From a virus (lineage: Duplodnaviria > Heunggongvirae > Uroviricota > Caudoviricetes): 22,159 nt of DNA. A model generated the notes under the pieces. The model ran no database searches. It was not told the origin of the DNA and was given only the letters and a program-made list of their open reading frames with translations. The stretch covers positions 1 through 22,159 of IMG/VR virus record IMGVR_UViG_2671180847_000010; one strand, given 5' to 3'. This document shows, piece by piece, positions 1,009 to 17,541 of the stretch. The translations under genes were made by a program, and so were the position numbers. Each line of letters opens with the position of its first letter. The first letter of the stretch is position 1.

Positions 1009-1083
1009 GTCCTCTTAGTTAAATGGATATAACGAGCCCCTCCTAAGGGCTAATTGCAGGTTCGATTCCTGCAGGGGACACCA
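1009..1083 (+). tRNA. argW: tRNA-Arg (anticodon CCU), prophage integration target
   Basis: 75-nt sequence gtcctcttagttaaatggatataacgagcccctcctaagggctaattgcaggttcgattcctgcaggggacacca read directly; cloverleaf-compatible, ends in CCA, anticodon loop CUCCUAA. Matches my recollection of E. coli argW. Confidence 0.93.
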
Positions 1084-1244
1084 TTTATCAGTTCGCTCCC
1101 ATCCGTACCAGTCCGCAAAATCCCCTGAATATCAAGCCTCCCGTAGATTCACAGTTCGTCATGGTTCGCGTCAGATCGTTGACAGCCGCACTCCATGACG
1201 GGTAAAAAGTGGATAAAATAATTTTACCCACCGGATTTTTACCC

Positions 1245-2402
1245 ATGCTCACCGTTAAGCAGATTGAAGCAGCAAAGCCGAAAGAAAAACCATACCGCCT
1301 TCTCGATGGTAATGGCCTGTACCTTTATGTCCCTGTGTCAGGGAAAAAGGTATGGCAGCTTCGCTACAAGATTGACGGTAAGGAGAAAATCCTGACCGTC
1401 GGAAAATATCCGCTTATGACTTTGCAGGAAGCAAGGGATAAGGCATGGACTGCGAGGAAAGACATCTCGGTTGGCATCGATCCGGTAAAGGCGAAAAAGG
1501 CTTCGTCTAACAACAATTCATTTAGTGCGATTTACAAGGAATGGTACGAGCACAAGAAGCAAGTCTGGTCAGTAGGCTATGCAACTGAACTTGCCAAAAT
1601 GTTTGATGACGACATTTTACCCATCATCGGCGGTCTTGAGATTCAGGATATTGAGCCGATGCAACTGCTGGAAGTAATCCGCAGATTTGAAGATCGCGGT
1701 GCAATGGAGCGAGCCAACAAAGCCCGCAGAAGATGCGGCGAGGTTTTCCGTTACGCTATTGTCACTGGTAGGGCTAAATATAACCCGGCACCTGACCTTG
1801 CTGACGCCATGAAGGGATACCGCAAGAAGAACTTCCCGTTTTTACCTGCCGACCAGATCCCGGCATTCAACAAAGCACTTGCAACATTTTCAGGAAGTAT
1901 CGTATCGCTCATTGCGACAAAAGTTTTACGTTATACAGCCCTAAGAACGAAAGAGCTTCGTTCCATGCTATGGAAGAACGTCGATTTTGAAAACAGGATT
2001 ATCACCATCGACGCCAGTGTGATGAAGGGACGCAAAATTCATGTGGTCCCGATGTCAGACCAGGTGGTTGAACTTCTCACTACGCTAAGCTCAATCACCA
2101 AACCAGTCTCAGAGTTTGTTTTTGCCGGGCGCAACGATAAGAAAAAGCCAATCTGCGAGAACGCGGTATTGCTTGTGATCAAACAAATCGGCTATGAGGG
2201 TCTGGAAAGCGGTCACGGATTCAGGCATGAATTCAGCACGATTATGAACGAGCACGAATGGCCTGCTGACGCTATTGAAGTGCAACTGGCACATGCCAAC
2301 GGCGGATCTGTGCGCGGGATTTACAACCATGCTCAGTATCTCGATAAGCGCAGAGAAATGATGCAGTGGTGGGCGGACTGGCTTGATGAAAAGGTGGCGT
2401 AA
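1245..2402 (+). CDS. intS: P4-family tyrosine integrase (IntS-like), transcribed away from argW
   Basis: Tyrosine-recombinase C-terminal region (..HGFRHEFST.., ..RGIYNH..) and an N-terminal region of the kind P4-family integrases carry; sits immediately 3' of a tRNA gene. Start placed at in-frame ATG 1245 (385 aa) rather than the track's GTG 1209; neither has a strong SD. Confidence 0.9.
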   Translation: MLTVKQIEAAKPKEKPYRLLDGNGLYLYVPVSGKKVWQLRYKIDGKEKILTVGKYPLMTLQEARDKAWTARKDISVGIDPVKAKKASSNNNSFSAIYKEWYEHKKQVWSVGYATELAKMFDDDILPIIGGLEIQDIEPMQLLEVIRRFEDRGAMERANKARRRCGEVFRYAIVTGRAKYNPAPDLADAMKGYRKKNFPFLPADQIPAFNKALATFSGSIVSLIATKVLRYTALRTKELRSMLWKNVDFENRIITIDASVMKGRKIHVVPMSDQVVELLTTLSSITKPVSEFVFAGRNDKKKPICENAVLLVIKQIGYEGLESGHGFRHEFSTIMNEHEWPADAIEVQLAHANGGSVRGIYNHAQYLDKRREMMQWWADWLDEKVA

Positions 2403-2630: not shown

Positions 2631-4538
2631 CTAAGCATTAAACCCTCCGACTCTTACTTTTAACGTGGTAAGCTTAGTATTTACTGTTATTTTTAAAGTT
2701 CCCGAGCCTGCAGCAACAGAGAATAAGCGGCGACCTCCAGATGTACCACCTCCAGCAGGAGGGGTGGTATCGAGTTCGCCTGTGATCGATATTGAAATGG
2801 TACCCTCACGGTTAGCAACGAGTAGCTCTAAACATTCAGCCCAGGTGTTTTGTGCAGAAGACCAAGCATCGATAAGGATTCTCTGTGTCGTTCTGTTTGG
2901 TATTGCGATGGATTTTACTTCACCTTCATTTACCAGACCTTGAAAACGAGTTCCATAATCTATCCAGCTAATGTTATAACCTGCATTTGTTGCAGGGTCT
3001 TGAGAGGTATACCAGGTCTGGGTTCGCACTCCAGTTTGACCGATTGTCAGTAGAGGACGAGCAAACTGATCGCGGTGAATGTATGCGTTAGCCCTTATTC
3101 CATTGCTTTGCAGATCTATATCTGCTGTTCGAGGGTTAGGAAAAGTAGCTTTTCCACCAACATCAAAAACATCATAATGATTTGCAACTGCAGGAATCCA
3201 TCCGTTCCTGTCCAGATTTCTAAAGAAATCCTCGAAAGCCAGCCAGTATGATTGCTGATGACCTAAAAGGTTAGGGTGAACAGTCTGTATTTCAGGGGTC
3301 CGGTCAAATAATGCCGTTTCACCATATTTAGCAACAGCATCAAACCAGTATTTTTCCACATCGATAAGCACGCAACCCATTTCTACAGCGATTTTCCTGA
3401 TCGCATCGTTTCCTCGAAGGAAGCGGACACCTGCTTGAATATTTACCCCATTCCACTCAAACGTGACATTTGAGTTTGCGGCAGATGGTATAATGTCATT
3501 ATCAGAGACTGGGGCCGGAGAAGATGAAGGCCATATTTGAGAAATTCCAGCCGGCATGCTCCAGCTATATTCAGAAATATTCGGATGAGGTGTGGTTGTT
3601 AGCACAACATCCCCGCCGGCCTCCCTGACTAAATTAATAGCATTTCGAAGGCGCTGTTTAAATCCGTTTTCATTGAATGTTTGCCCGGCATTATATTGTG
3701 CGGTAGGAAAATCATTCATTCCATATATAAACAAAGCAATATCAGGATATATTCCTTCAGTAACAACTTCAGGCCATTGGTTAACAATAAAATTATTTAT
3801 CGTTGAACCATTAACAGATTTGTTTGTGAAGTTAATGGGATAAATACGCTGCTTATTTAACGTATCGTTCATATACTCAAAAAATTTAGCAACTGGTGCC
3901 TGTGTTGCTGGATCAGGAAGCGTAGCACCAACCCCAACAGAAGAACCAAACCCATAGAGTCGAAATAAGTTCTGATAGCCAGAAACCCCATGCCGATAAG
4001 CTGTTAATTTATTGACGAAATTTGGGAAAAGGGCCTGTGATGATCCAGACGCAGCACGAATAGAAGCCTCTACCGTTCTTCCTGTTTCAGTCGCAACTAG
4101 GCTAGCACCTTCTTTTGAAGATAATCGGCAGTTAAAATCTGATATCTCATCAATTTCTGATTGTATTGCTGCCAGTAGCTCATCTACGTAGTGACGTAAC
4201 TGGTCAGGCTCGTATTTTAGAACATTAGGAAAATAGAACTGCTGAGCACCATATGCATCATAAACAGCCATAGAATGGCCTTGCACAGTAACGAACTTGG
4301 CAATCTGCCCGTTATATACCGGATATCCAGCAGCGTTAATGATGATTGGTTGCGAAACAGGAACATGAGAGCCGTCTTCGTTCTCTACATAAACCTGAAT
4401 CTGGTTTTCTGGACTTACCGGGTCAGTGTCAATTTTACCGATATAAATTTTTCCATTGGCTACGGCTTTAAAAGAACGAGCCATAGTGAAGAGTTGCGAA
4501 GGCATGCTTACCACAACATTGGCTGTAATGTCTGTCAT
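2631..4538 (-). CDS. Tailspike protein: P22-like head-binding N-terminal domain fused to a non-P22 receptor-binding region with SGNH-hydrolase-like motifs
   Basis: N-terminal ~115 aa ([11 protein letters not shown]...[18 protein letters not shown]...[11 protein letters not shown]) matches the conserved P22 gp9 head-binding domain as I recall it. Downstream region carries ordered motifs GFGSS (aa 196-200), NGST (243-246), GMND (273-276, nt 3711-3722) and VHP (420-422), resembling SGNH blocks I, II, III and V. Confidence 0.9.
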
Positions 4539-4670
4539 TTAATTTGCTCCAGATACAAGGAATCACCGAAGCATGGCTACGGTTGGTGTTTGTTGCATAC
4601 CGAAATGGTACGATTGTTGATTTGTACAGTAGGTTTTACGATGCCATTCCACCCATTTGGTGAGGCATTG
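4539..4670. promoter_or_regulatory. Divergent intergenic region between tailspike (-) and mnt-like (+) starts; presumed promoters/operators
   Basis: 132-bp non-coding spacer between two divergently oriented start codons; GGAG-type SD upstream of each start. Specific -10/-35 elements could not be assigned confidently by eye. Confidence 0.4.
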
Positions 4671-4928
4671 ATGATGTACAGCAAATACGATGAGGCGCAG
4701 TTCCACTTGAGGCTTACGCACGAGTTGCACGCTAAGATTAAGCAACGTGCAAAAATGAATAACAGGTCTATCAATTCCGAAATTGTGGCTACGATGGAAG
4801 AATCACTCTCCAAACCATCACCTGTAAGCGGGTATCGTGATGAAGAAGAGAGGCTGGCCTCATTAATCTCGGAACGAGTAAAAGAAGTTGTGGCTGATAT
4901 CCTTAGAAAAGAAAAAACCCGCAATTAA
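4671..4928 (+). CDS. mnt: Mnt-like ribbon-helix-helix repressor (immI-type)
   Basis: 85-aa product with an RHH N-terminus (FHLRLTHELHAKIKQRA..NNRSINSEIVATMEESL) and the segment SKPSPVSGYR, closely resembling P22 Mnt as recalled. SD GAGG 5 nt upstream of ATG 4671. The track's 217-aa ORF (4275..4928) is an upstream extension that overlaps the tailspike in antisense. Confidence 0.8.
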   Translation: MMYSKYDEAQFHLRLTHELHAKIKQRAKMNNRSINSEIVATMEESLSKPSPVSGYRDEEERLASLISERVKEVVADILRKEKTRN

Positions 4929-4936
4929 GCGGGTTT
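4915..4936 (-). terminator. Rho-independent terminator closing the minus-strand antirepressor operon; mnt stop codon lies in the loop
   Basis: Stem AAACCCGC / GCGGGTTT with 6-nt loop aattaa. On the minus strand the hairpin is followed by TTTTTTC TTTTC; on the plus strand the U-tract is poor. The mnt TAA (4926-4928) is in the loop. Confidence 0.75.
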
Positions 4937-4942
4937 AGTTGG

Positions 4943-5164
4943 TTAGTTATCAAAAAGTCCGTACGTTTCTTCTTCTTCAGGTGTAAGGGGAAGAATCTCT
5001 ACTCTATCTATAGATACCTTTTCAATGTACCCATGAGGTCTACTTAAAATTAAAGCTCTCTCATGCCACAGAACTCCAAGAATGTGATACCTTCCAGCAT
5101 CTCCTTTTACCCTGGCTCTTCCTTTGATTCTTGGCGGCATAATGCCATATCTTTTCTTTGCCAT
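4943..5164 (-). CDS. Hypothetical 73-aa protein, translationally coupled to the upstream antirepressor gene
   Basis: Start ATG overlaps the stop of the upstream gene (TAATG arrangement at 5162-5166); ORF ends just before the operon terminator. No recognisable domain. Confidence 0.5.
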   Translation of the reverse strand: MAKKRYGIMPPRIKGRARVKGDAGRYHILGVLWHERALILSRPHGYIEKVSIDRVEILPLTPEEEETYGLFDN

Positions 5165-5889
5165 TATGCAACATTGCTCCCATGAATCAGGTGTTGTAGT
5201 GCTTTAACACCCTCCGCATTGTAGCGGAATGCTTCCACCTGTTTGCTTGAATGCGCAGATTTATCCAAGAAGAACTTCCCGTACTGCTCAGTTTTGAGGT
5301 TGTTTGCGTTAGCAATGCGACCAATCTTGTTTGCCGTTACTCCAAGCTGCTCTGCAACCTCCCCTGCTGAGTAGTAATGCTCTTCTATTGCTGGAAGAGG
5401 TATTGCATTAAAACCAACTATCGGGTTGATTATGCTTGCTGCCGCAGTCTGCTTTGCTTCCGGCGCAAGATTTGGCATCAAATCTAACAGATTGGTAACA
5501 GCTTCAACCGTCATTTTCAATGTTCGAGCCTGGCGATACTCAACAAGTCCACTCGACGATTTACCGCTTTTAATGTGCGCTTCTTGCATACTTTCAAGTT
5601 TGTCTACAAGTGTTCGGCGAACTGCTTTAGATTCGCGAGCAGCAACACGAAGCGCCTGCTTGATAGTCATGGAGATAACATCAATGTCAGCCCCGTTTTT
5701 CCGACCTACACTTTTTGTGTAGGTCTCGCCCTCCAATTCATCCTCAATTTTCTCGATGAATTTGTTGTTACGTACTGATGGCTCTCCACATAACTTGCGA
5801 GCTTCATTAACCATCATCAGAAGACTTTGGCTGTCAATGGTTTTATCCGTGACAACGGATCCGATGTTTGCTACATTCTTCAAAGTCAT
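5164..5889 (-). CDS. Putative phage antirepressor (Ant/KilAC-like C-terminal region)
   Basis: 241 aa from ATG 5889 with SD AAGGAA upstream (track ORF begins further upstream at 5940). C-terminal segment YSAGEVAEQLGVTANKIGRIANANNLK... resembles KilAC/ANT antirepressor domains; domain call is from memory and needs a profile search. Confidence 0.7.
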   Translation of the reverse strand: MTLKNVANIGSVVTDKTIDSQSLLMMVNEARKLCGEPSVRNNKFIEKIEDELEGETYTKSVGRKNGADIDVISMTIKQALRVAARESKAVRRTLVDKLESMQEAHIKSGKSSSGLVEYRQARTLKMTVEAVTNLLDLMPNLAPEAKQTAAASIINPIVGFNAIPLPAIEEHYYSAGEVAEQLGVTANKIGRIANANNLKTEQYGKFFLDKSAHSSKQVEAFRYNAEGVKALQHLIHGSNVA

Positions 5890-5977
5890 TAGGCATTCCT
5901 TATGTGGTAGTAAGGGTGTGACATAGGCCGCCAGCAGCACACTGGCGGTTTTCTTTTTGCGCCGTCCGGCGCACCAA

Positions 5978-6604
5978 TCAATGAATCCATTCCTCGCCGC
6001 GCAGTTTTGTCAGCATTGGCTGAGCGTTCTTTACGACAAAATTGTTGGTATCAAGATTCTTCATTTCACGAAGAAGTGATTTCTTGGTTTCTTCTGACAT
6101 ATAGCGAGTCTCATATGCAATATCGTAAATTCTTCCTGAAAGCTCAGAACCAATTTGCTTCATTCCTGGGTAGATGTGTTTGCACATTTGTTGACTCTTC
6201 TCCATCCACAATTGTAAGTAGCAGAGATTAACCAGTTCTTCGTCAGTAAACTGTTTTGCAATCGGTGAGCATTCTGCCTGCCGATCCAAAATATCCAGCA
6301 CCCAGCGGCGGAACTCTTTGGCTACCGGAGTGCGAGCAAACATCGCGATTAGGTGGGCACCGCGTAGTGAGAAAACTCGCACTTTTTTGCGATAATTTCC
6401 TGAGGTACTCACTTCGAGTACCTGAGTCATTCCGGCGCTAAACTCATCGCTATACTTGTTATAAATCATTGTTACTGCACGGCTATTTGCATATTTAAGT
6501 GCAGATGCAATATTAGATGATGTAAACCAAACACCATGCATATCACGGGTGGGCACCAACTCAACTCCGTGGAAGTTGTAATCTGATTTTGCTACAATAT
6601 TCAT
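5978..6604 (-). CDS. Bro-N domain protein (antirepressor-like)
   Basis: Bro-N signature (..GVWFTSSNIASALKY..KKVRVFSLRGAHLIAMFARTPVAKEFRRWVLDIL..). Start placed at ATG 6604 preceded by SD AAGGAA; the track ORF starts at an upstream TTG (6709). Confidence 0.8.
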   Translation of the reverse strand: MNIVAKSDYNFHGVELVPTRDMHGVWFTSSNIASALKYANSRAVTMIYNKYSDEFSAGMTQVLEVSTSGNYRKKVRVFSLRGAHLIAMFARTPVAKEFRRWVLDILDRQAECSPIAKQFTDEELVNLCYLQLWMEKSQQMCKHIYPGMKQIGSELSGRIYDIAYETRYMSEETKKSLLREMKNLDTNNFVVKNAQPMLTKLRGEEWIH

Positions 6605-6677
6605 GTTAGTTTCCTTGCATACGGTTACTGACATAGAGGCCCGGTTTGTGTTCGCGCACTGCCGGGCTTCACTATTT

Positions 6678-6851
6678 TTATTGGATGACAACATCGCCCT
6701 TTGCCTCAAGTTTCATCAATAACTCCATTCGATAAGCTATCTCTGCCTGAATTGACCTATGGCATCTTTTTGCTGATTCGCGGATATGTGAATCAACCTT
6801 TTCTGTAAAACGAACCTGACGCGGCTTGATGGAAGATATCTTTTCAGTCAT
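6678..6851 (-). CDS. Arc-like ribbon-helix-helix protein (57 aa), first gene of the antirepressor operon; absent from the ORF track
   Basis: Hand translation of the minus strand: MTEKISSIKPRQVRFTEKVDSHIRESAKRCHRSIQAEIAYRMELLMKLEAKGDVVIQ. SD AGGAG 6 nt upstream of the ATG. RHH pattern (beta strand QVRFTEKV, then two helices) and RSIQAEIAYRME resemble P22 Arc RSVNSEIYQRVME as recalled. Below the track's apparent 60-aa cutoff. Confidence 0.6.
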   Translation of the reverse strand: MTEKISSIKPRQVRFTEKVDSHIRESAKRCHRSIQAEIAYRMELLMKLEAKGDVVIQ

Positions 6852-6950: not shown

Positions 6951-7592
6951 ATGAATTTTGACGATCAATTCCCATCAAGAGTATCTCTGGCAAGACAGTC
7001 CAGGGGTATGACGCAGGCGCAGTTGTCAAAATTAGCTGGTGTTGTTCAACGTCAAATAGCTGCATACGAGGGTGGTGAGGCTAAACCACGGCTTCGTGTA
7101 TTGCAGGCATTAGCCAACGCATTAGGCACTACGGCTGAGTGGTTAGCTCTGGGTGAAGGTCAGGGGCCTGGAACAAAAAACGTCATGCCTGACGTTCTGG
7201 TAAAGCAAATACCAATCCTCAAACTAGATGAAGTTATGCATTACCTAAACACAGGTGAACATTCATCGTCTAGATTTCATCCGGCAATATACAATGTTGG
7301 TGACTCTGCATTTGCATTGACTATTGAAGGTGAAGCTATGACTACAAGTTCAGGTATTAGCTTTCCCAGAGGATCAGTTGTCACGTTCAGCCCTCTAGTA
7401 AAAGCTAAAAGCAAAGATTATGTAATAGCATCATTGGATAAAGAGCAAATATTGAGCTTCAAGCAGGTTTACATTGGTGAAATAGAGACAAACTTAGTAT
7501 CCCTAAACCCAATGTATCCTAATATTCTTGTTAGAAATGAAGATGTTAGTATTTTGGCAACCGCAGTTTACCTTGAAATCCCGTTGCTTTGA
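6951..7592 (+). CDS. CI/LexA-like repressor: XRE-type HTH plus peptidase S24-like domain with Ala at the nucleophile position (predicted non-cleavable)
   Basis: N-terminal HTH (MTQAQLSKLAGVVQRQIAAYE). C-terminal region aligns by eye to lambda CI: DSAFALTIEGEAM vs CI DSAFWLEVEGNSM, SFKQV vs TFKKL, LNPMYP vs LNPQYP. Nucleophile position is Ala129 (codon gct at 7335-7337); Lys171 is retained; no Ala-Gly in the linker. Confidence 0.9.
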   Translation: MNFDDQFPSRVSLARQSRGMTQAQLSKLAGVVQRQIAAYEGGEAKPRLRVLQALANALGTTAEWLALGEGQGPGTKNVMPDVLVKQIPILKLDEVMHYLNTGEHSSSRFHPAIYNVGDSAFALTIEGEAMTTSSGISFPRGSVVTFSPLVKAKSKDYVIASLDKEQILSFKQVYIGEIETNLVSLNPMYPNILVRNEDVSILATAVYLEIPLL

Positions 7593-7652: not shown

Positions 7653-8042
7653 GTGAAGCTATTTCTTGCTGCTATGTTCTTATTCATATCTTTTGGGGCT
7701 ACAGCAGAGTGCTGGGTCGTTGGAGATATGCGCGGAATAAGCTATTCAGAACGAAATAATTTCCATCCGGAAGAAGATGGTTTTAGTGGAACATTCATCA
7801 TTAAGACAAGCGGTGAAGATGCTAGCATCACATATTCTGGGACAGATGCGGGCGGCATGGCTTACAAAGTATTGTCTAAAAACTCCATCATAGGAATCGG
7901 CGCGAATGGCGAAACTCAACGCGTTATCGACTCATGGGTAATACATCCTACTGGAACAGTTTTAATGTCAAAAACCATTTCCGGTTATGGAAATATGGAT
8001 TCAACCAAAGCTTTTGTTGGAAAAGTAAAAAGAAAATGTTAA
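7653..8042 (+). CDS. Hypothetical exported protein (signal peptide), probably co-transcribed with the CI-like repressor
   Basis: GTG start 5 nt after a strong SD AAGGAGG. N-terminus MKLFLAAMFLFISFGATA-E looks like a Sec signal peptide with an A-x-A cleavage site; two Cys in the mature part. No terminator between it and the repressor gene. No recognisable domain. Confidence 0.7.
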   Translation: MKLFLAAMFLFISFGATAECWVVGDMRGISYSERNNFHPEEDGFSGTFIIKTSGEDASITYSGTDAGGMAYKVLSKNSIIGIGANGETQRVIDSWVIHPTGTVLMSKTISGYGNMDSTKAFVGKVKRKC

Positions 8043-8063
8043 TGATAGGATTATGGCCCTACA

Positions 8064-8249
8064 TCAACAGGTTCCGCGCCCCTGAGTAATTCTGTTGCGG
8101 ATTTGCTTCTTGCGGTGGTTTAAGCTGGATAGCTTGGCTTCTGCTTCTGATATTTGCGCATCTAGATCTTTAAGCTCAAGATCTGAAAGTCGCTGGTCAA
8201 GCAGGGTTTGATTCAACTCAATGTTGTTCAGGCGTTCTTCTATGGTCAT
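8064..8249 (-). CDS. Hypothetical 61-aa coiled-coil protein
   Basis: ATG preceded by a strong SD (TAAGGAG, 6-nt spacer); heptad-like Leu/Ile spacing. It lies directly after a terminator U-tract with no room for its own promoter, so expression is uncertain. Confidence 0.35.
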   Translation of the reverse strand: MTIEERLNNIELNQTLLDQRLSDLELKDLDAQISEAEAKLSSLNHRKKQIRNRITQGRGTC

Positions 8250-8265
8250 GATTTCTCCTTATAAA

Positions 8266-8287
8266 AAACCCACCTGACGGTGGGTTT
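8266..8287 (-). terminator. Rho-independent terminator after the lipoprotein gene (possibly bidirectional)
   Basis: Stem AAACCCACC / GGTGGGTTT, 4-nt loop. On the minus strand it is followed by a U run (TTTTTTAT), 9 nt after the lipoprotein TAA. On the plus strand it is followed by TTTCATTTCTT. Confidence 0.7.
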
Positions 8288-8293
8288 CATTTC

Positions 8294-8713
8294 TTAATCT
8301 TGCTTTGTAGACGGTATAAGGGATGCGTTTGCCTCTTTTGGCTTCAAGGTATACATCCCACCATTAAATGGATCAACAGCAAGCCAACCAATTAACCCAC
8401 CAAACACAAGGTTTCCACCAATATACCAACCATTAGCATTGGCTTTGATTGGCAGGGTAACTGGTTCGTACCCATCCTTCTCCATAGTGATCTGGTAGCT
8501 CTTTTTGCCAAAATAACTACCATCTGACTTGGCAAGAGTTACTCCTTGCGGGGTCTTACCTTGCGCAACAATCACGCCTGATTCGTCTTTTACCTTAAAG
8601 CTCGCACCGGAAGGATTGCTGTTCACTTGCACAAGCTGTGTTTCGTCACCAACAATAGTTGCGCACCCAGATAACATGATAGCGCCAGCAACGACGCTAA
8701 TAATCCTCTTCAT
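8294..8713 (-). CDS. Prophage lipoprotein with PEGA-like motif, insulated accessory gene
   Basis: MKRIISVVAGAIMLSG-C has a lipobox (LSGC) after a hydrophobic signal. Segment NPSGASFKVKDESGVIVAQGKTPQGVTL...KDGYEPVT resembles the PEGA motif. Start at ATG 8713 (track ORF starts 4 codons upstream at 8725). Own terminator downstream; 83-bp non-coding spacer upstream. Confidence 0.78.
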   Translation of the reverse strand: MKRIISVVAGAIMLSGCATIVGDETQLVQVNSNPSGASFKVKDESGVIVAQGKTPQGVTLAKSDGSYFGKKSYQITMEKDGYEPVTLPIKANANGWYIGGNLVFGGLIGWLAVDPFNGGMYTLKPKEANASLIPSTKQD

Positions 8714-8808
8714 ATCAATTTCCATATCTAAAAAACCGGAAACATCCTAATGACAAACCATTCAAATGTGAAGCACGAGATAAGATCAATCCATCCGTGG
8801 ACGACTAA

Positions 8809-10977
8809 TTACTCCTGTGTCATTCCGCTTAGCGATACTACAATCCCAGCCCTCGACAAACGCTGGAACTCTTCGTTTCCTAGTGCATCGCGAATTGCTT
8901 TTACGGCGGCCTTATTTGCCATAAATCTGCGTTCCGCCGCCGCTAATGCGCCATCACTTGCCCCAACCTTAACTGCCTTTGTTGCCTCTTGAACAGCCTT
9001 TTCAATAGCGTAACGACCACTTCTGGTTGCGGATAATTTCGCTATCGATCCTTTTGCTATCGCATCAATTGCTCCACCTGCAGCGCCACCAACTATTGCT
9101 CCAATAACACCTCCTCCAGAGAACCCTGCGATAGCGCCAGCGGTTGGAAAAGCGCCAGACAATACGCTCTCTAAAACTGGATGAAGGCCATTCTCAAGAG
9201 TGCTAATGGCTGGCATAGAGCGCCCTGTCTGTTCAACATATCGAAGTGGCTTTGTTGCAGCTCTTGCAAGTTCTCCGTATGAACTTGTAATCCTGCCAAG
9301 TTCTGGAGAATATCGACTAATTGCCTTCACGTTTTGTGGGGTAAGAATAGTCGCGATATGCTTAATTCCAGCCCCTTCAGACTTACCTCCGCGTACCCCT
9401 TGCGATACCGCATCTTGTAATATTGATGCAATTGCTGGCGCGCGTTCCGACTCAGGTAGGGCGCTTATTATTTTATGAAACTGACCTGTTCCACTTTTTG
9501 CTGAGCCCTGTAACGCCTTAGAGCCATTAGTTACTAACTGATCAGTTGCAAGGTCTCTACCAAACGCTGCTTCAGCCTGTTCTTGTGCTGTAAATCTTGC
9601 CTTTGACAGATCATTAGCTTTTTGCCAGTCATCAAGAAAACCGCCATTTTGAGCCATTATGCGCATATCTTCCGTTGCTGCATCACGAAGCTCAGCCATG
9701 CGCCTTGCCGTATTTGCCTCACCAGACCTTATATACTTCTGCTCTGCGTCAGCAAGTTTACTTCGCCATGCCTTCATGGCATCAAACGTGATTCCTTTTT
9801 TACCAGTTTTAGCATAAGCAGATGCGAATTGTTTCATCTCAGGAGTTAGCGGCATGCCAGCCAAAATATCACCCTGAATTGTAGCGTTCAGGTTTGACAT
9901 TCTGGCCTTTGCGTCAGGCATCGTGGAGCGGACGCTATCCCATGCGGCCTTTTCTGAATTTTTCATTTTATCAATGCTTGCCAAAACCCTCTGTTTTATG
10001 GCTGCACTTTTTTCTGATGCAGTTCCTGCTTCAGCCCCAAACTCATCCAATGCTGAGTTAAATTTCGACTCTATTTCACTGAATGCTTTGGTGTGTGCAT
10101 CCTGTGTAATTCCGGGCTTTGACGCCAGAATCCCCTCCGCCTGAGCAAGACCACGACTACCTGATCTCATGCCAGGAGTTAATGCGTTGATATCTATTCC
10201 AGCAGTATCTGCTGCTTTTGCTATTTCGTCTGACACGTTAGCTGACTGTCTGGCAATAATCTCTCTTCCTGTACCAGACTTTGCCATTTTCGAAACATCA
10301 TTAGCAGAATTCAGTGCTGCACCACCAAGAGCCTGTGAAACCCTTGGCGCAATAACGCGCCCGACACCTGAAAGAACGCCTTGAGCACCAATATTGATAC
10401 CACCGTTAATGGCAGCATTTTGTGCAAAGTCGCCCTCCTGATTTGCAGCATCAGCAAGAGAACCTGCAATCATGTTTCCTGCGGAACCGATATCTCCAGC
10501 GAGCTTTGCTGTCGCTCCAGCAGCTTTTGCCGCTGTGCCAATTGGCAGGAGATACCCACCAAATGTTTCACCGGCTTGCGCCCAACGGTCTGTCGGTCGA
10601 TCGACAGGGCGATAAACATCATCCAAAACCTTGGGGCCACCAAGCCCATGGCTGATTGCATTAATCAGACTTGCGCCACCCTGCAATACGTCAAATGGTA
10701 TGTTTACCAGACCACGACCAGCCTGTTCTGCAATTTGCCCTGCACTTTGACCACCTGTGAGCCAATCGCCAGCTTGTTGCATCAATGATGGTTCTTCTTT
10801 CTGCTGCTGATGCGGAGGGTATGCAGCATAAAACTGATCTCTTGCTTCAGCCCATTTGTCACCAGCCTTAGGGGCAACAACCTCATCAAAATATTGCGCT
10901 TGAGCCTGTGCTTTCTGTTCTTCAGTTAACGCCTGATACTGTGGAGAAGCGATAACATCTTTCCATGCTTTAGCCAT
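8809..10977 (-). CDS. DNA ejection (internal virion) protein, P22 gp16-position
   Basis: Last gene of the late operon, in the position of P22 gene 16. Start overlaps the gp20 stop (ATGA). Gly/Ala-rich hydrophobic segment near the C-terminus. Confidence 0.85.
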
Positions 10978-13031: not shown

Positions 13032-13487
13032 CTATCTCCCGTGATTCAGGAAGTCGATTAGTTCTTCGCGTGTGGCGCTGTAAAAAGTCACGTCATCCAC
13101 GCCTTTAAAGTATTTCTTGATGGTTCCGACACGCTTAAGGCCAATCATTGCGCAGTAAATCTGCCCGTGGCGGAATTTGCGTGCGGCGAACGATGTGACG
13201 CACTGAACGGTGGTGTTAGTCAGAATATATCGCCAGAACGCCAGCCCGATTTCCTTGCTGAAGCCGCGAACCTCTGGCAGGTACATGGCGTGGCAATCGA
13301 ATGTCAGCGGCTGAATCTCCTGATAGTAAACAATGCCGCCGAACTGCCCGTGCACGTTCACCTCAAAGTAACGGCAATCATGTTTATAGTCGTATCCATC
13401 ACCGTTGTTGCTCCCGGCAATAATGTCAGGGTGATTTCCGACTGCTTCGATCAAGTCGATGTTTCGCGTTGGTTTGAATGTAATCAT
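13032..13487 (-). CDS. P22 gp14-like virion assembly/ejection-associated protein
   Basis: 151 aa; synteny between gp26 and gp7 homologues; N-terminus MI.FKPTRNIDLIEAVGNHPDIIAG resembles P22 gp14 as recalled. Confidence 0.8.
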   Translation of the reverse strand: MITFKPTRNIDLIEAVGNHPDIIAGSNNGDGYDYKHDCRYFEVNVHGQFGGIVYYQEIQPLTFDCHAMYLPEVRGFSKEIGLAFWRYILTNTTVQCVTSFAARKFRHGQIYCAMIGLKRVGTIKKYFKGVDDVTFYSATREELIDFLNHGR

Positions 13488-14188
13488 CAGTCAATCAGCC
13501 CATGTAATCTAAGTGCTGTTTCAAGCGCCAGAATACGCTGCCGCGTCTGCTGCAAACCTGTAGCGAGAGCCGCGACTTCGGATTGTGTGTACGTAGTGCC
13601 GACCGTGTATGACTGGTTAGCGTTGAATGAGCCAAGAAGAGGTATACCTGTGGCTGCAGTCCATCCGGTATTTCTTGCTCCAACAACCTGAATTCCATCA
13701 ACTGAATATGATGTTTTTACATCCAGCGGTGACGCAAGAGACTGCGATTCTGTTACGGTTTTCGATACGTAATCACTCTTAATGTCAGATACATCGCTTT
13801 CTACGCCATCCAGTCTTTGGTCAACAGTGACCAGATGCGCCTGAATATCGATAACCTCATCCAGCAAGTGATCAACATCGCTACGCAGTACGACTATCTT
13901 CCCTTCGGCGGTTGTTAACCTGACCTCAAGGAGATTTATCGCTTTTGTGTTTGCGGTGATTCTTGCGTCGTGATCAGCCAGTTCGACGTCCTGTTCATCG
14001 TTTTTTACCTGGGCATCGTAAGCGCCCTGACCAGCCTGATTTGCCTTCCCGGCAATTGCACCGACATCAGCACCCTGATTTATGACATACAGAAGGTAAG
14101 ACTGGCTGAATATATTGCGTGGAAGGATTGATGTATCGAGCCGCGTCGCCTGCACAATAACAGGGGTGTTGAGATTCGAATCAGCCAT
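13487..14188 (-). CDS. Tail needle protein, P22 gp26-like
   Basis: 233 aa; conserved N-terminal region ([67 protein letters not shown]) and C-terminal ..HGLID as in P22 gp26 (recalled). Confidence 0.9.
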
Positions 14189-15615: not shown

Positions 15616-16077
15616 TCACGTACTCGGATCATCTTTCTCGATGTAAAACCGATTCCACGTAAACGCGCTTTTGTTACCACTACCGCGAGGCATATCATTT
15701 CGCCGCTCAAGTGGTGGTATTTTGGTTAAAGCGATACAGATTGTCTGATATGCACTGGCAGCAGCGGTAAGGAGAGCGTCTGACGGCTGAATGACGTTAT
15801 CCATGCACACTTGCACAGCGAGTTTCAAAGCGACGCCATCATTTGCCCATGCAGGGATACCTGAATCATCGTCAGGTAACGGCATGATGCCGTTTTCTGT
15901 ATCCGCAAACTGATATCCAAGCTCGATACCTTTCTCCTGCCATGCTGCCATCATGTCTTCGAGGTCATTAATGGCATCTTCTATTGCCTGAGGGTCGGCA
16001 TCTGTCAACGTGGCATTGGAATACAGCCCGGCTTTTCGTAAAGCCTTAAGAACGAGATCACCCTTCGTTTTCGCCAT
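15616..16077 (-). CDS. Tail accessory factor / head completion protein, P22 gp4-like
   Basis: 153 aa; N-terminus MAKTKGDLVLKALRKAGL resembles P22 gp4 (..KTKGDLV.AALRKLG..); position between the coat-proximal small ORF and gp10. Confidence 0.85.
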   Translation of the reverse strand: MAKTKGDLVLKALRKAGLYSNATLTDADPQAIEDAINDLEDMMAAWQEKGIELGYQFADTENGIMPLPDDDSGIPAWANDGVALKLAVQVCMDNVIQPSDALLTAAASAYQTICIALTKIPPLERRNDMPRGSGNKSAFTWNRFYIEKDDPST

Positions 16078-16246
16078 CTTCTTCCGCCTTAGCCACTTTT
16101 TGCTTCGTTGCGGTTTCTTCAGGGGTTTTTACCCAGCCTTTTTTCAGGTGAGATTTAACTTCTTCGTCATCAACAATGATGTAATCGACAGCAAACTGAC
16201 CACAGGTGATCATGTTTCCAGGCTTATAGAGCATTGTTCGTGCCAT
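16058..16246 (-). CDS. Small hypothetical protein (62 aa) between coat and gp4 genes
   Basis: ATG 16246 preceded by SD GGGAGAAG, immediately after the coat terminator; overlaps the gp4 start by 20 nt. The track ORF (75 aa) starts upstream inside the terminator. Confidence 0.5.
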   Translation of the reverse strand: MARTMLYKPGNMITCGQFAVDYIIVDDEEVKSHLKKGWVKTPEETATKQKVAKAEEDGENEG

Positions 16247-16260
16247 TGTCTTCTCCCAAT

Positions 16261-16281
16261 AAAAATGGGGCCGAAGCCCCA
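16261..16281 (-). terminator. Intrinsic terminator immediately after the coat gene
   Basis: On the minus strand: stem GGGGC, loop TTCG (UUCG tetraloop), stem GCCCC, then ATTTTTATT, beginning a few nt after the coat TAA. Confidence 0.7.
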
Positions 16282-16287
16282 CCAAAA

Positions 16288-17541
16288 TTACTGCCCGGCA
16301 ATAACGATGCCCGTATATTCAGGAACAAGTACAGAGCAACCGTACAGAGTGGTGAAACGAGCAGTGGTTACGCCTTTGATGTGGTCGAAGGCGTAAGACA
16401 TGATCAGCGTAGCGCCCTGCTCGGTGGTTGCTGTCATTACCTGTGGACCCTGACCAGTCGGGAACGCCAGTTTGCCGTACATCAGCTCAACAGAACCATC
16501 GGCCCAGAACAGGTTAGCCGGTGCGGCATTTTTGTTGAGAATGGTGATTGCTGCACCATTTGCCGCGTTAGCATCAACGTTTGCATATGGACGGCTGGCG
16601 ACATCTGCGTTGCCAGGCGGCAGAATTTTCGGGGAGATAGTCACTGTCGTTCCGCTTACTGCCAGAACGCGGAATACCTGCGGCTGCCCGGTGGTGTCTT
16701 TGGTGATCTGGTGTACAGAATTCACGCCAGCAATGGTGAACGCATCACCAACCTGCAACCCAGATGCAGATACCGTAATAGTCCCCTGTCGGTTATCCAC
16801 TGGCATATCGTTGGCATCTTTCGCTTCAACCTTGTGCGCAGGTTCAGCCGCCAGCGTCAGGGAAGTTGCTGTACCCTTCGGAACACGACCAGAAATATCG
16901 GTCTTGTAGCTATCGAAGGACGCAACCGGAGGGATCTGCGCTTTTTCGTATGCTGTCAGGGTTGCGCCCTGAGCATAGGCACGGTGACCAAGCTCGCCAG
17001 CAAGGTCTTTGTAGTTGAAGGGGTTCCAGAAAGAGCGGCGGTTGATACCCTGTGGTACACCAATCGCCGTCATGGTGGCATCAATACCTGCCGCACAGTT
17101 CCACAAATCACGGCCCTGTGAACCAGTGGTTGAGTCAGCCATTGTGATCACGTTAGTAGCACGCTGCGTGACCATGGAAATCAGGTCAGAGTCAATCTGT
17201 GCAGCAAGGCGCATACCTGCGGCGCGACCAGCTTCAGTTTTATGTTCCGGGTCACGCATTTCACGCGCATCCAGAGTGTACAGAATGTTTTTCGGCTCCT
17301 TGAACACAGAAGGAACAAGGCGCTGAACCAGTGCTGTTGGCGTTTTGCTGCTGAGGTCGAGGCCTTCCTCAATATTCATGTGGTAATGCTGCGGACGATA
17401 CAGAACATCACCTGCTCGCTGCATTGCTGTATCACCGGGACGGAATTTTTTAGCGTTACGGGAAACTACGCAGGCGGCCTCAAAGCCTTCAACGTAGTTT
17501 TCGAACATGATTTCAAGGTCTTTTGCTAATTGGTTAGTCAT
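16288..17541 (-). CDS. Major capsid (coat) protein, P22 gp5-like
   Basis: 417 aa in the position after the scaffold gene; SD GGAG upstream; shares conserved segments with P22 coat as recalled (e.g. ..NVFWADD.. vs ..NLFWADG..). Confidence 0.9.
   Translation of the reverse strand: MTNQLAKDLEIMFENYVEGFEAACVVSRNAKKFRPGDTAMQRAGDVLYRPQHYHMNIEEGLDLSSKTPTALVQRLVPSVFKEPKNILYTLDAREMRDPEHKTEAGRAAGMRLAAQIDSDLISMVTQRATNVITMADSTTGSQGRDLWNCAAGIDATMTAIGVPQGINRRSFWNPFNYKDLAGELGHRAYAQGATLTAYEKAQIPPVASFDSYKTDISGRVPKGTATSLTLAAEPAHKVEAKDANDMPVDNRQGTITVSASGLQVGDAFTIAGVNSVHQITKDTTGQPQVFRVLAVSGTTVTISPKILPPGNADVASRPYANVDANAANGAAITILNKNAAPANLFWADGSVELMYGKLAFPTGQGPQVMTATTEQGATLIMSYAFDHIKGVTTARFTTLYGCSVLVPEYTGIVIAGQ

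Follow-up and report, generated by a model that had tools for sequence, protein, structure and literature searches.

A conserved 61-codon protein-coding gene abutting a lipoprotein-gene terminator in a P22-like prophage

The small open reading frame (ORF) located on the minus strand between the lipoprotein gene and the exported-protein gene of the window (the whole 22,159-nucleotide stretch of IMG/VR virus record IMGVR_UViG_2671180847_000010 analyzed here) is a genuine protein-coding gene, conserved and kept under purifying selection. A real small protein had been considered as one possibility in the original prediction, made from the DNA letters alone, and it is now strongly supported by the purifying selection, by the preservation of the frame and stop codon and by the presence of a Shine-Dalgarno (SD) site in unrelated contexts. 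As a hypothetical gene it has already been catalogued, and the architecture around it is well understood. The explanation that quite probably accounts for the whole is an accessory gene of the ant moron, which would be read from a late antiterminated mRNA and whose close contact with a terminator represents a recombination joint.

Prophage Layout and Gene Neighborhood

The window covers the right-hand portion of a prophage of the P22-like type (Lederbergvirus), which has inserted at a tRNA-Arg(CCU) gene (Table 1). The minus strand carries, in this order, the genes for the large terminase, portal, scaffold, coat, further virion proteins and DNA-transfer proteins, and everything from the terminase to gp16, as well as the small ORF and the tailspike gene, is co-directional; the late promoter and the Q gene fall outside the window. 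The layout of positions 1–2402 matches that of phage Kapi1, which integrates at argW.

Table 1. Positions of the main features of the window (hyphens in the strand column are minus signs).
Feature	Position	Strand	Basis or remark
Host formate/nitrite-transporter-family gene	1–933
tRNA-Arg(CCU), argW-like	1009–1083		Rfam match at 1009–1080
Integrase gene	1209–2402		Transcribed away from the tRNA
Tailspike gene	2631–4538	-	Next phage gene after the integrase
Third late-direction intrinsic terminator	4915–4936	both possible	Upstream of the tailspike gene; matches the position of the P22 post-ant terminator
Exported-protein gene, phrog_2651	7653–8042	+	N-terminal signal-like segment; downstream of the S24-type repressor gene (6951–7592)
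61-aa protein-coding gene, phrog_7586 family	8064–8249	-	ORF and translation, PHROG match, pN/pS, RefSeq CDS, AlphaFold2 helix
Shine-Dalgarno TAAGGAG	8255–8261	-	5 nt before the ATG of the small ORF; sequence and duplex energy
Intrinsic terminator of the lipoprotein moron	8263–8288	both possible	Scan, fold, epsilon34 homology
Lipoprotein gene, epsilon34 gp15-like, phrog_6823	8294–8725	-	PHROG E 2.6e-86, alignment from residue 5
gp16-like DNA-transfer gene	8809–10977	-	Last of the DNA-transfer genes
Hairpin and T-run after the coat gene	16264–16283	-	Followed by an SD and a 62-codon ORF (16058–16246)

Several features of the neighborhood deserve a separate description. The usual place of Mnt is occupied by an HTH_3 + Peptidase_S24 repressor gene (6951–7592, plus strand), whose product is LexA/CI-like and presumably self-cleaving. 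It is divergent from an Arc-like gene (6678–6851, minus strand) and an Ant antirepressor gene (5978–6709, minus strand), and a good promoter-like site, TTGACT-17-AATAAT (6929–6901, minus strand), lies in between, an arrangement that suggests an SOS-cleavable control of the antirepressor instead of Mnt. E. coli HS carries this segment with 100% identity. It was found in 50 of 5426 genomes and in none of the 63 IMG/VR loci carrying the small ORF. A genuine gene for an 85-aa Arc/Mnt-family protein (4671–4928, plus strand; PF03869, E 1e-14) was found inside a longer spurious ORF (4275–4928), divergent from the tailspike gene, which starts at 4538, and not adjacent to arc/ant; its stop overlaps the bidirectional terminator hairpin 4915–4936, as is the case with mnt in epsilon34. 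The first Ant gene is followed by a second antirepressor gene (5164–5940, minus strand; phrog_1726, E 2e-100), so that the ant moron carries two antirepressor-type genes, and also by a 73-aa gene (4943–5164, minus strand; phrog_4977). A plus-strand terminator-like hairpin (5925–5951) between the antirepressor genes overlaps the GTG (5940) listed as the start of the second one.

Sequence and Conservation of the Small ORF

The translation of the small ORF (61 aa) is MTIEERLNNIELNQTLLDQRLSDLELKDLDAQISEAEAKLSSLNHRKKQIRNRITQGRGTC, starting with ATG at 8249–8247 and ending with TGA at 8066–8064 of the minus strand. Its SD, described as strong in the original prediction, proved to be so: TAAGGAG (8261–8255) gave a predicted pairing energy of -9.3 kcal/mol with the 3′ end of the 16S rRNA, a level of -9 kcal/mol being reached by only 0.8% of the 874 ATGs of the window (mean -2.2), and it was unpaired in the local fold. 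The other parts of the predicted setting were recovered as well: the lipoprotein terminator, i.e., the hairpin 8288–8265 with its U-tract, sits just upstream on the same strand, the gap between the small ORF stop and the stop of the convergent exported-protein gene measured 21 nt (8043–8063), and, in agreement with the supposed lack of room for an own promoter, a consensus scan, which may overlook an atypical promoter, found the 250 nt upstream of the small ORF to be free of promoter-like sites both in the window and in 44 of 62 loci. Among the 18 loci with such a site, the -10 element overlapped the start codon in 15.

Since the window contains 150 ORFs of at least 40 aa, the length of 61 codons is unremarkable by itself, and it is the conservation data that raise the small ORF above chance. 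The phrog_7586 HMM matched over the full length (residues 1–61 on profile positions 1–61 of 61, E 7.1e-44, 148.5 bits), and the corresponding 61-aa hypothetical CDS, WP_062886867.1, was annotated by PGAP/RefSeq at the homologous place in E. coli ETEC1747. In E. coli, 130 of the 5426 complete genomes carried the DNA of the small ORF with 90–99% identity; the other carriers were two isolated phages, Kapi1 and Emek, the record S.Kent 1-2-1 and 63 IMG/VR viral contigs. The frame was intact in 61 of the 63 IMG/VR loci, the two exceptions being an ACG in place of ATG and a 5′-truncated copy.

The 63 comparable sequences contained 46 distinct DNA alleles with zero indels, only TGA or TAA as the stop codon and 48 variable sites, 27 of which fell on codon position 3. 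The comparison of synonymous with non-synonymous changes, proposed earlier as a check, gave a pN/pS of 0.095 for the ORF frame (Nei-Gojobori, 46 alleles from the 63 sequences), with 0.034 for codons 1–46 and 0.46 for the variable tail (codons 47–61). The values in frames +2, +3, -1 and -3 ranged from 1.1 to 2.8, and the in-phase antisense frame -2 gave 0.25 but was closed by stop codons. In the wider family, the indels (one 11-residue deletion and one 3-residue insertion) stayed in frame, and 15 alignment columns were invariant down to 55–75% identity, with the Serratia homologue included. Frame-disrupting changes in conserved homologues, which would speak against a gene, did not show up in this material.

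The proteins catalogued as phrog_7586/WP_062886867.1, Kapi1_061 (QOC59577.1, vB_EcoP_Kapi1) and the unnamed ORF of vB_SemP_Emek were 92–98% identical to the small-ORF protein, and in Kapi1 and Emek the ORF had the same position (from gp16 to mnt/arc/ant/tailspike) and the same orientation as in the window. The annotation of Kapi1_061 adds 31 codons at the N terminus, which overlap the divergent Kapi1_060 and lack conservation in the other contexts; therefore, the 61-codon form represents the conserved unit.

Predicted Protein and Its Relatives

AlphaFold2 modeling with the family alignment produced one continuous helix spanning residues 3–59 (pLDDT 93.7). The heptad repeat, which had been called plausible, is a real pattern, although with one stutter: hydrophobic residues occupied six of the eight a/d positions within residues 3–28 and eight of the ten within residues 26–57. 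The charges were split along the helix, with 10 D/E and 4 K/R in residues 1–40 and 6 K/R but no D/E in residues 41–61, and the latter part had no hydrophobic run. The product is predicted to be a 7-kDa single long amphipathic helix of the coiled-coil type, acidic toward the N terminus and with a basic tail at the C terminus; this anatomy suggests that it acts through oligomerization or partner binding, rather than as an enzyme or in a membrane.

Distant homologues were recovered neither by a word-indexed search of 5.8 billion proteins nor by an exhaustive phmmer search of 1.84 billion representatives: the matches comprised only the close family from Escherichia, Salmonella and Serratia, plus three long generic coiled-coil proteins. 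No copy was detected in other species by scanning genome contigs with one genome per species, and the other proteins encoded in the window showed no significant similarity (best E 0.39, with the product of ORF 13487–14188). The AlphaFold2 helix had zero Foldseek matches in PDB, so that the fold says nothing on function. The Pfam, NCBIfam and PADLOC searches yielded only sub-threshold coiled-coil noise, with no NCBIfam or defence-system model matched.

The name "XhlA family" has been attached by CDD and PGAP to the longer annotated versions of the protein. Both XhlA and the small-ORF product are short phage proteins with an N-terminal coiled-coil segment, but the Pfam XhlA model (PF10779) scored below its cut-off (15.1 bits versus the gathering threshold of 34.7, E 0.027). 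The weak alignment placed residues 3–55 on profile positions 2–49, and the profile positions 50–67, which we take to be the C-terminal membrane segment, were unmatched. The tail of the small-ORF protein is basic/polar without a hydrophobic segment, and the whole is modeled as one amphipathic helix. Neither the longer annotated forms of 89 and 92 aa (P0002, P0003) nor the diverged members P0025 and P0030 had an XhlA match at E ≤ 0.1. A second candidate, DUF3847 (PF12958), was rejected as well, with 16.8 bits versus the threshold of 40 and residues 26–56 aligned to positions 2–32 of the 81 in the profile. The conserved gene is, therefore, the 61-codon frame and not its 89–92-codon "XhlA family" version, and the XhlA label should be dropped.

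Upstream Terminator and Module Exchange

The terminator ahead of the small ORF consists of a 10-bp hairpin with a GC-rich core (8288–8265, minus strand), beginning 5 nt past the lipoprotein stop codon (8296–8294) and followed by UUUUUUAU. Its fold of -16.2 kcal/mol (z = -3.1) was equalled by one of 200 shuffles. The hairpin is probably bidirectional, ending also the plus-strand repressor/exported-protein transcript. The lipoprotein gene, which likely starts at ATG 8713, encodes an LSGC lipobox and has a weak PEGA match; a promoter-like site, TTCACA-17-TAGGAT, lies upstream of it at 8772–8744, and together with the terminator this is the classic moron anatomy.

The homology with epsilon34 covers window positions 8263–8773 and ends between the U-tract and the SD. 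In the epsilon34 record, the same hairpin is annotated as a Rho-independent terminator, overlapping/abutting the 3′ end of mnt. Because epsilon34 carries the lipoprotein gene (gene 15) and the hairpin without the small ORF, and because its homology stops at 8263, the tight abutment of the U-tract and the SD is a recombination joint of two shuffled modules, one made of the lipoprotein gene with its terminator and the other of the SD with the ORF. In one IMG/VR locus (L053, ~2960–2990), the loop of the terminator hairpin reads TGAC, while GTCA is found in most loci; a loop occurring in either orientation fits a palindromic bidirectional terminator module inserted both ways round.

The edges of the second module were sharp: in the 130 E. 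coli genomes the homology blocks mostly began 0–15 nt before the ATG and mostly ended 0–6 nt past the stop of the small ORF. Among the 63 viral loci, at least six unrelated upstream contexts and four downstream contexts were present. Every upstream context supplied a suitably spaced SD-like site (AAGGAG, TAAGGA, TAAGGT or AGGA). The duplex energies ranged from -9.3 to -3.9 kcal/mol, and in approximately half of the homologues the SD was weak, near -4 kcal/mol. Of the 62 loci whose 5′ end is intact, only 19 had a terminator hairpin upstream; in the remaining loci the start of a divergent gene was immediately upstream of the small ORF. Kapi1 has no terminator ahead of the ORF, unlike the window.

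The small ORF was absent from P22 and epsilon34 and, on account of this comparison, is dispensable, i.e., a non-essential accessory gene of the P22-like (Lederbergvirus) phages. A typical moron is an independent expression unit with a promoter and a terminator, whereas the small ORF has neither of its own and is late-directed. With the lambdoid morons (Juhala/Hendrix; epsilon34 gene 15 with its terminator, P22 pid) it shares the presence or absence among close relatives. Three genes of related phages were rejected as relatives or counterparts: pid of P22 is transcribed against its neighbors between orf25 and orf80, while the small ORF is late-directed and located elsewhere, and the two are unrelated; P22 orf59a and phage L orf62 had no tblastn similarity in the phage collection, with orf59a, moreover, on the opposite strand.

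Late-Operon Position and Source of the mRNA

The small ORF was located between gp16 and the mnt/arc/ant/tailspike genes in the late direction in all 63 IMG/VR loci; the agreement in orientation was scored where the neighbor was detected (gp16 in 24 loci and tailspike in 59), with no counter-example. Kapi1 has a Q antiterminator gene (Kapi1_036), and its late genes, from holin to tailspike, form one co-directional array on the strand that also bears Kapi1_061. The accessory region between gp16 and tailspike was named "ant moron" by Villafane et al. (PMC2629481), according to whom it is crossed by PLate transcription in P22, the phages treated there being without the small ORF. No strong late-strand terminator was detected after the small ORF stop, the next one being a weak 6-bp hairpin (7780–7763) inside the convergent gene.

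Three strong late-strand terminators of the P22 type were identified in the window: after the coat gene (16283–16264), after the lipoprotein gene (8288–8263) and before the tailspike gene (4936–4915). The lipoprotein terminator resembles the intra-operon terminators of the P22/lambda type in that a hairpin with a U-run is followed at once by an SD and a late-direction ORF. The recurrence of this order after the coat gene, mentioned in the original prediction, was verified: the hairpin 16283–16264 is followed by TTTTATT, GGGAGAAG and ATG 16246. The P22 record has a stem_loop at 6102–6119 after gene 5 and then orf69, as well as a terminator at 16012–16035 between ant and gene 9. Intra-operon late terminators, including one after the coat gene, and their possible roles are discussed in the phage L paper (PMC8022706). 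Unlike the P22 intra-operon terminators, the hairpin 8288–8263 is not among the conserved elements of the late operon and arrived with the lipoprotein moron. As separate observations, the coat-gene stop, hairpin and 62-codon ORF (16058–16290) match the annotated stem-loop and orf69 of P22, and Kapi1_051, the counterpart of the post-coat ORF, is annotated from a start upstream of the hairpin, the gene as annotated there being probably too long.

By analogy with P22, an RNA polymerase modified by Q/gp23 would ignore the lipoprotein terminator ahead of the small ORF by reading through 8288–8263, and equally the post-coat terminator and the one ahead of the tailspike gene. The mRNA of the small ORF would be the long antiterminated late transcript, which crosses the region to reach the tailspike gene, and the ORF would be translated from its own ribosome-binding site without an own promoter. 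Late Q/gp23-antiterminated transcription may thus both supply the mRNA and set the timing, the protein being made late in lytic growth, while in a lysogen the own, unmodified transcript of the lipoprotein moron would stop at the hairpin. The original prediction had proposed that the protein could be made by terminator read-through. What stands of this is that late transcription is expected to cross the site; since the ORF is late-directed between gp16 and tailspike and PLate crosses the region, programmed Q/gp23 antitermination appears likelier than leakage.

The same hairpin is also at the center of another, unlikely, explanation, namely that the small ORF is a lysogenic-conversion gene, whose transcripts start at the moron promoter and leak through the terminator, so that the protein acts in the lysogen; late expression would be compatible with this. 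It is favored by the promoter-like site upstream of the lipoprotein gene (8772–8744), by the adjoining genes of the ant moron, which are typical prophage-expressed accessory genes, and by Kapi1_061 not being among the undetected genes in the RNA-seq paper on the Kapi1 lysogen (PMC12922286), which implies some transcript in lysogen cultures. This transcript could come from either spontaneous induction or lysogenic expression, and spontaneous induction, as noted in the same paper, explains reads of lytic genes in lysogen cultures. Furthermore, the hairpin with its 10-bp stem, -16.2 kcal/mol and six U is a canonical strong terminator, and an upstream gene bearing a terminator is present in only the 19 loci mentioned above, whereas elsewhere a divergent gene starts there and no co-directional moron promoter is available.

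Convergent Transcription and the Antisense Question

The small ORF was always followed by a convergent gene of the prophage side: the order mnt-062-...-060-059 in Kapi1 and the S24 repressor and exported-protein genes in the window. In one of the downstream contexts, that of locus L057, the convergent gene (3264–3800, minus strand, 178 aa) is co-directional with an mnt-like gene and abuts it, being another accessory gene on the mnt-side operon. The hairpin 8266–8287 is the only plus-strand terminator-like site past 8042, and since no other precedes it, the opposite-strand transcript probably continues across the small ORF in antisense. The expression of the small ORF could be dampened by such convergent transcription, coming from the repressor/exported-protein or mnt side.

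The location of the ORF at the collision of the late and mnt-side operons, together with the dipolar helix and its basic tail, gives rise to the idea that the product regulates the immI/ant-moron region in the late phase or acts there as an anti-defence factor, with the mRNA doubling as an antisense partner in a lysogenic/lytic switch. If this were true, the protein might neutralize a prophage-expressed exclusion or repressor protein; we regard it as a long shot. Even less probable is that the amino-acid sequence is irrelevant and the frame is open only to keep ribosomes on the late mRNA toward the tailspike gene, guarding it against Rho-dependent polarity or against duplex formation with the convergent antisense transcript. 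The ORF indeed always occupies the place at which late transcription runs into the 3′ end of the opposite-strand operon, and it has no detectable relatives or domain; however, the pN/pS of 0.034 in codons 1–46 against a synonymous diversity of 0.158 indicates selection on the residues themselves, the 15 invariant columns extend to the Serratia homologue, and P22 and epsilon34 reach the tailspike gene without such an ORF.

The suggestion that the strand encodes an antisense RNA instead, i.e., that the ORF is untranslated and the conserved block either acts as antisense RNA on the plus-strand operon or serves as a linker for recombination, is hardly credible: although the block lies wholly antisense to what is probably the 3′ UTR/intergenic part of that operon and is a unit of mosaic exchange, its substitutions have a three-base periodicity with an excess at third positions in one frame only, start, stop and SD are kept in unrelated contexts, the sense strand folded no better than shuffles (z = +0.50), the antisense value (z = -1.98) came mostly from the terminator hairpin, and Rfam at gathering thresholds returned nothing at the small ORF, its only hit in the window being the tRNA.

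Significance for the P22-Like Phages

The importance of the small ORF beyond annotation is small, and its position on the U-tract does not point to an unusual regulatory device. The family illustrates cleanly how a cassette of about 200 bp, consisting of an SD and an ORF, serves as a unit of phage mosaicism, and an SD touching the U-tract of a terminator in a phage late operon may be read as a signature of module shuffling under antitermination.
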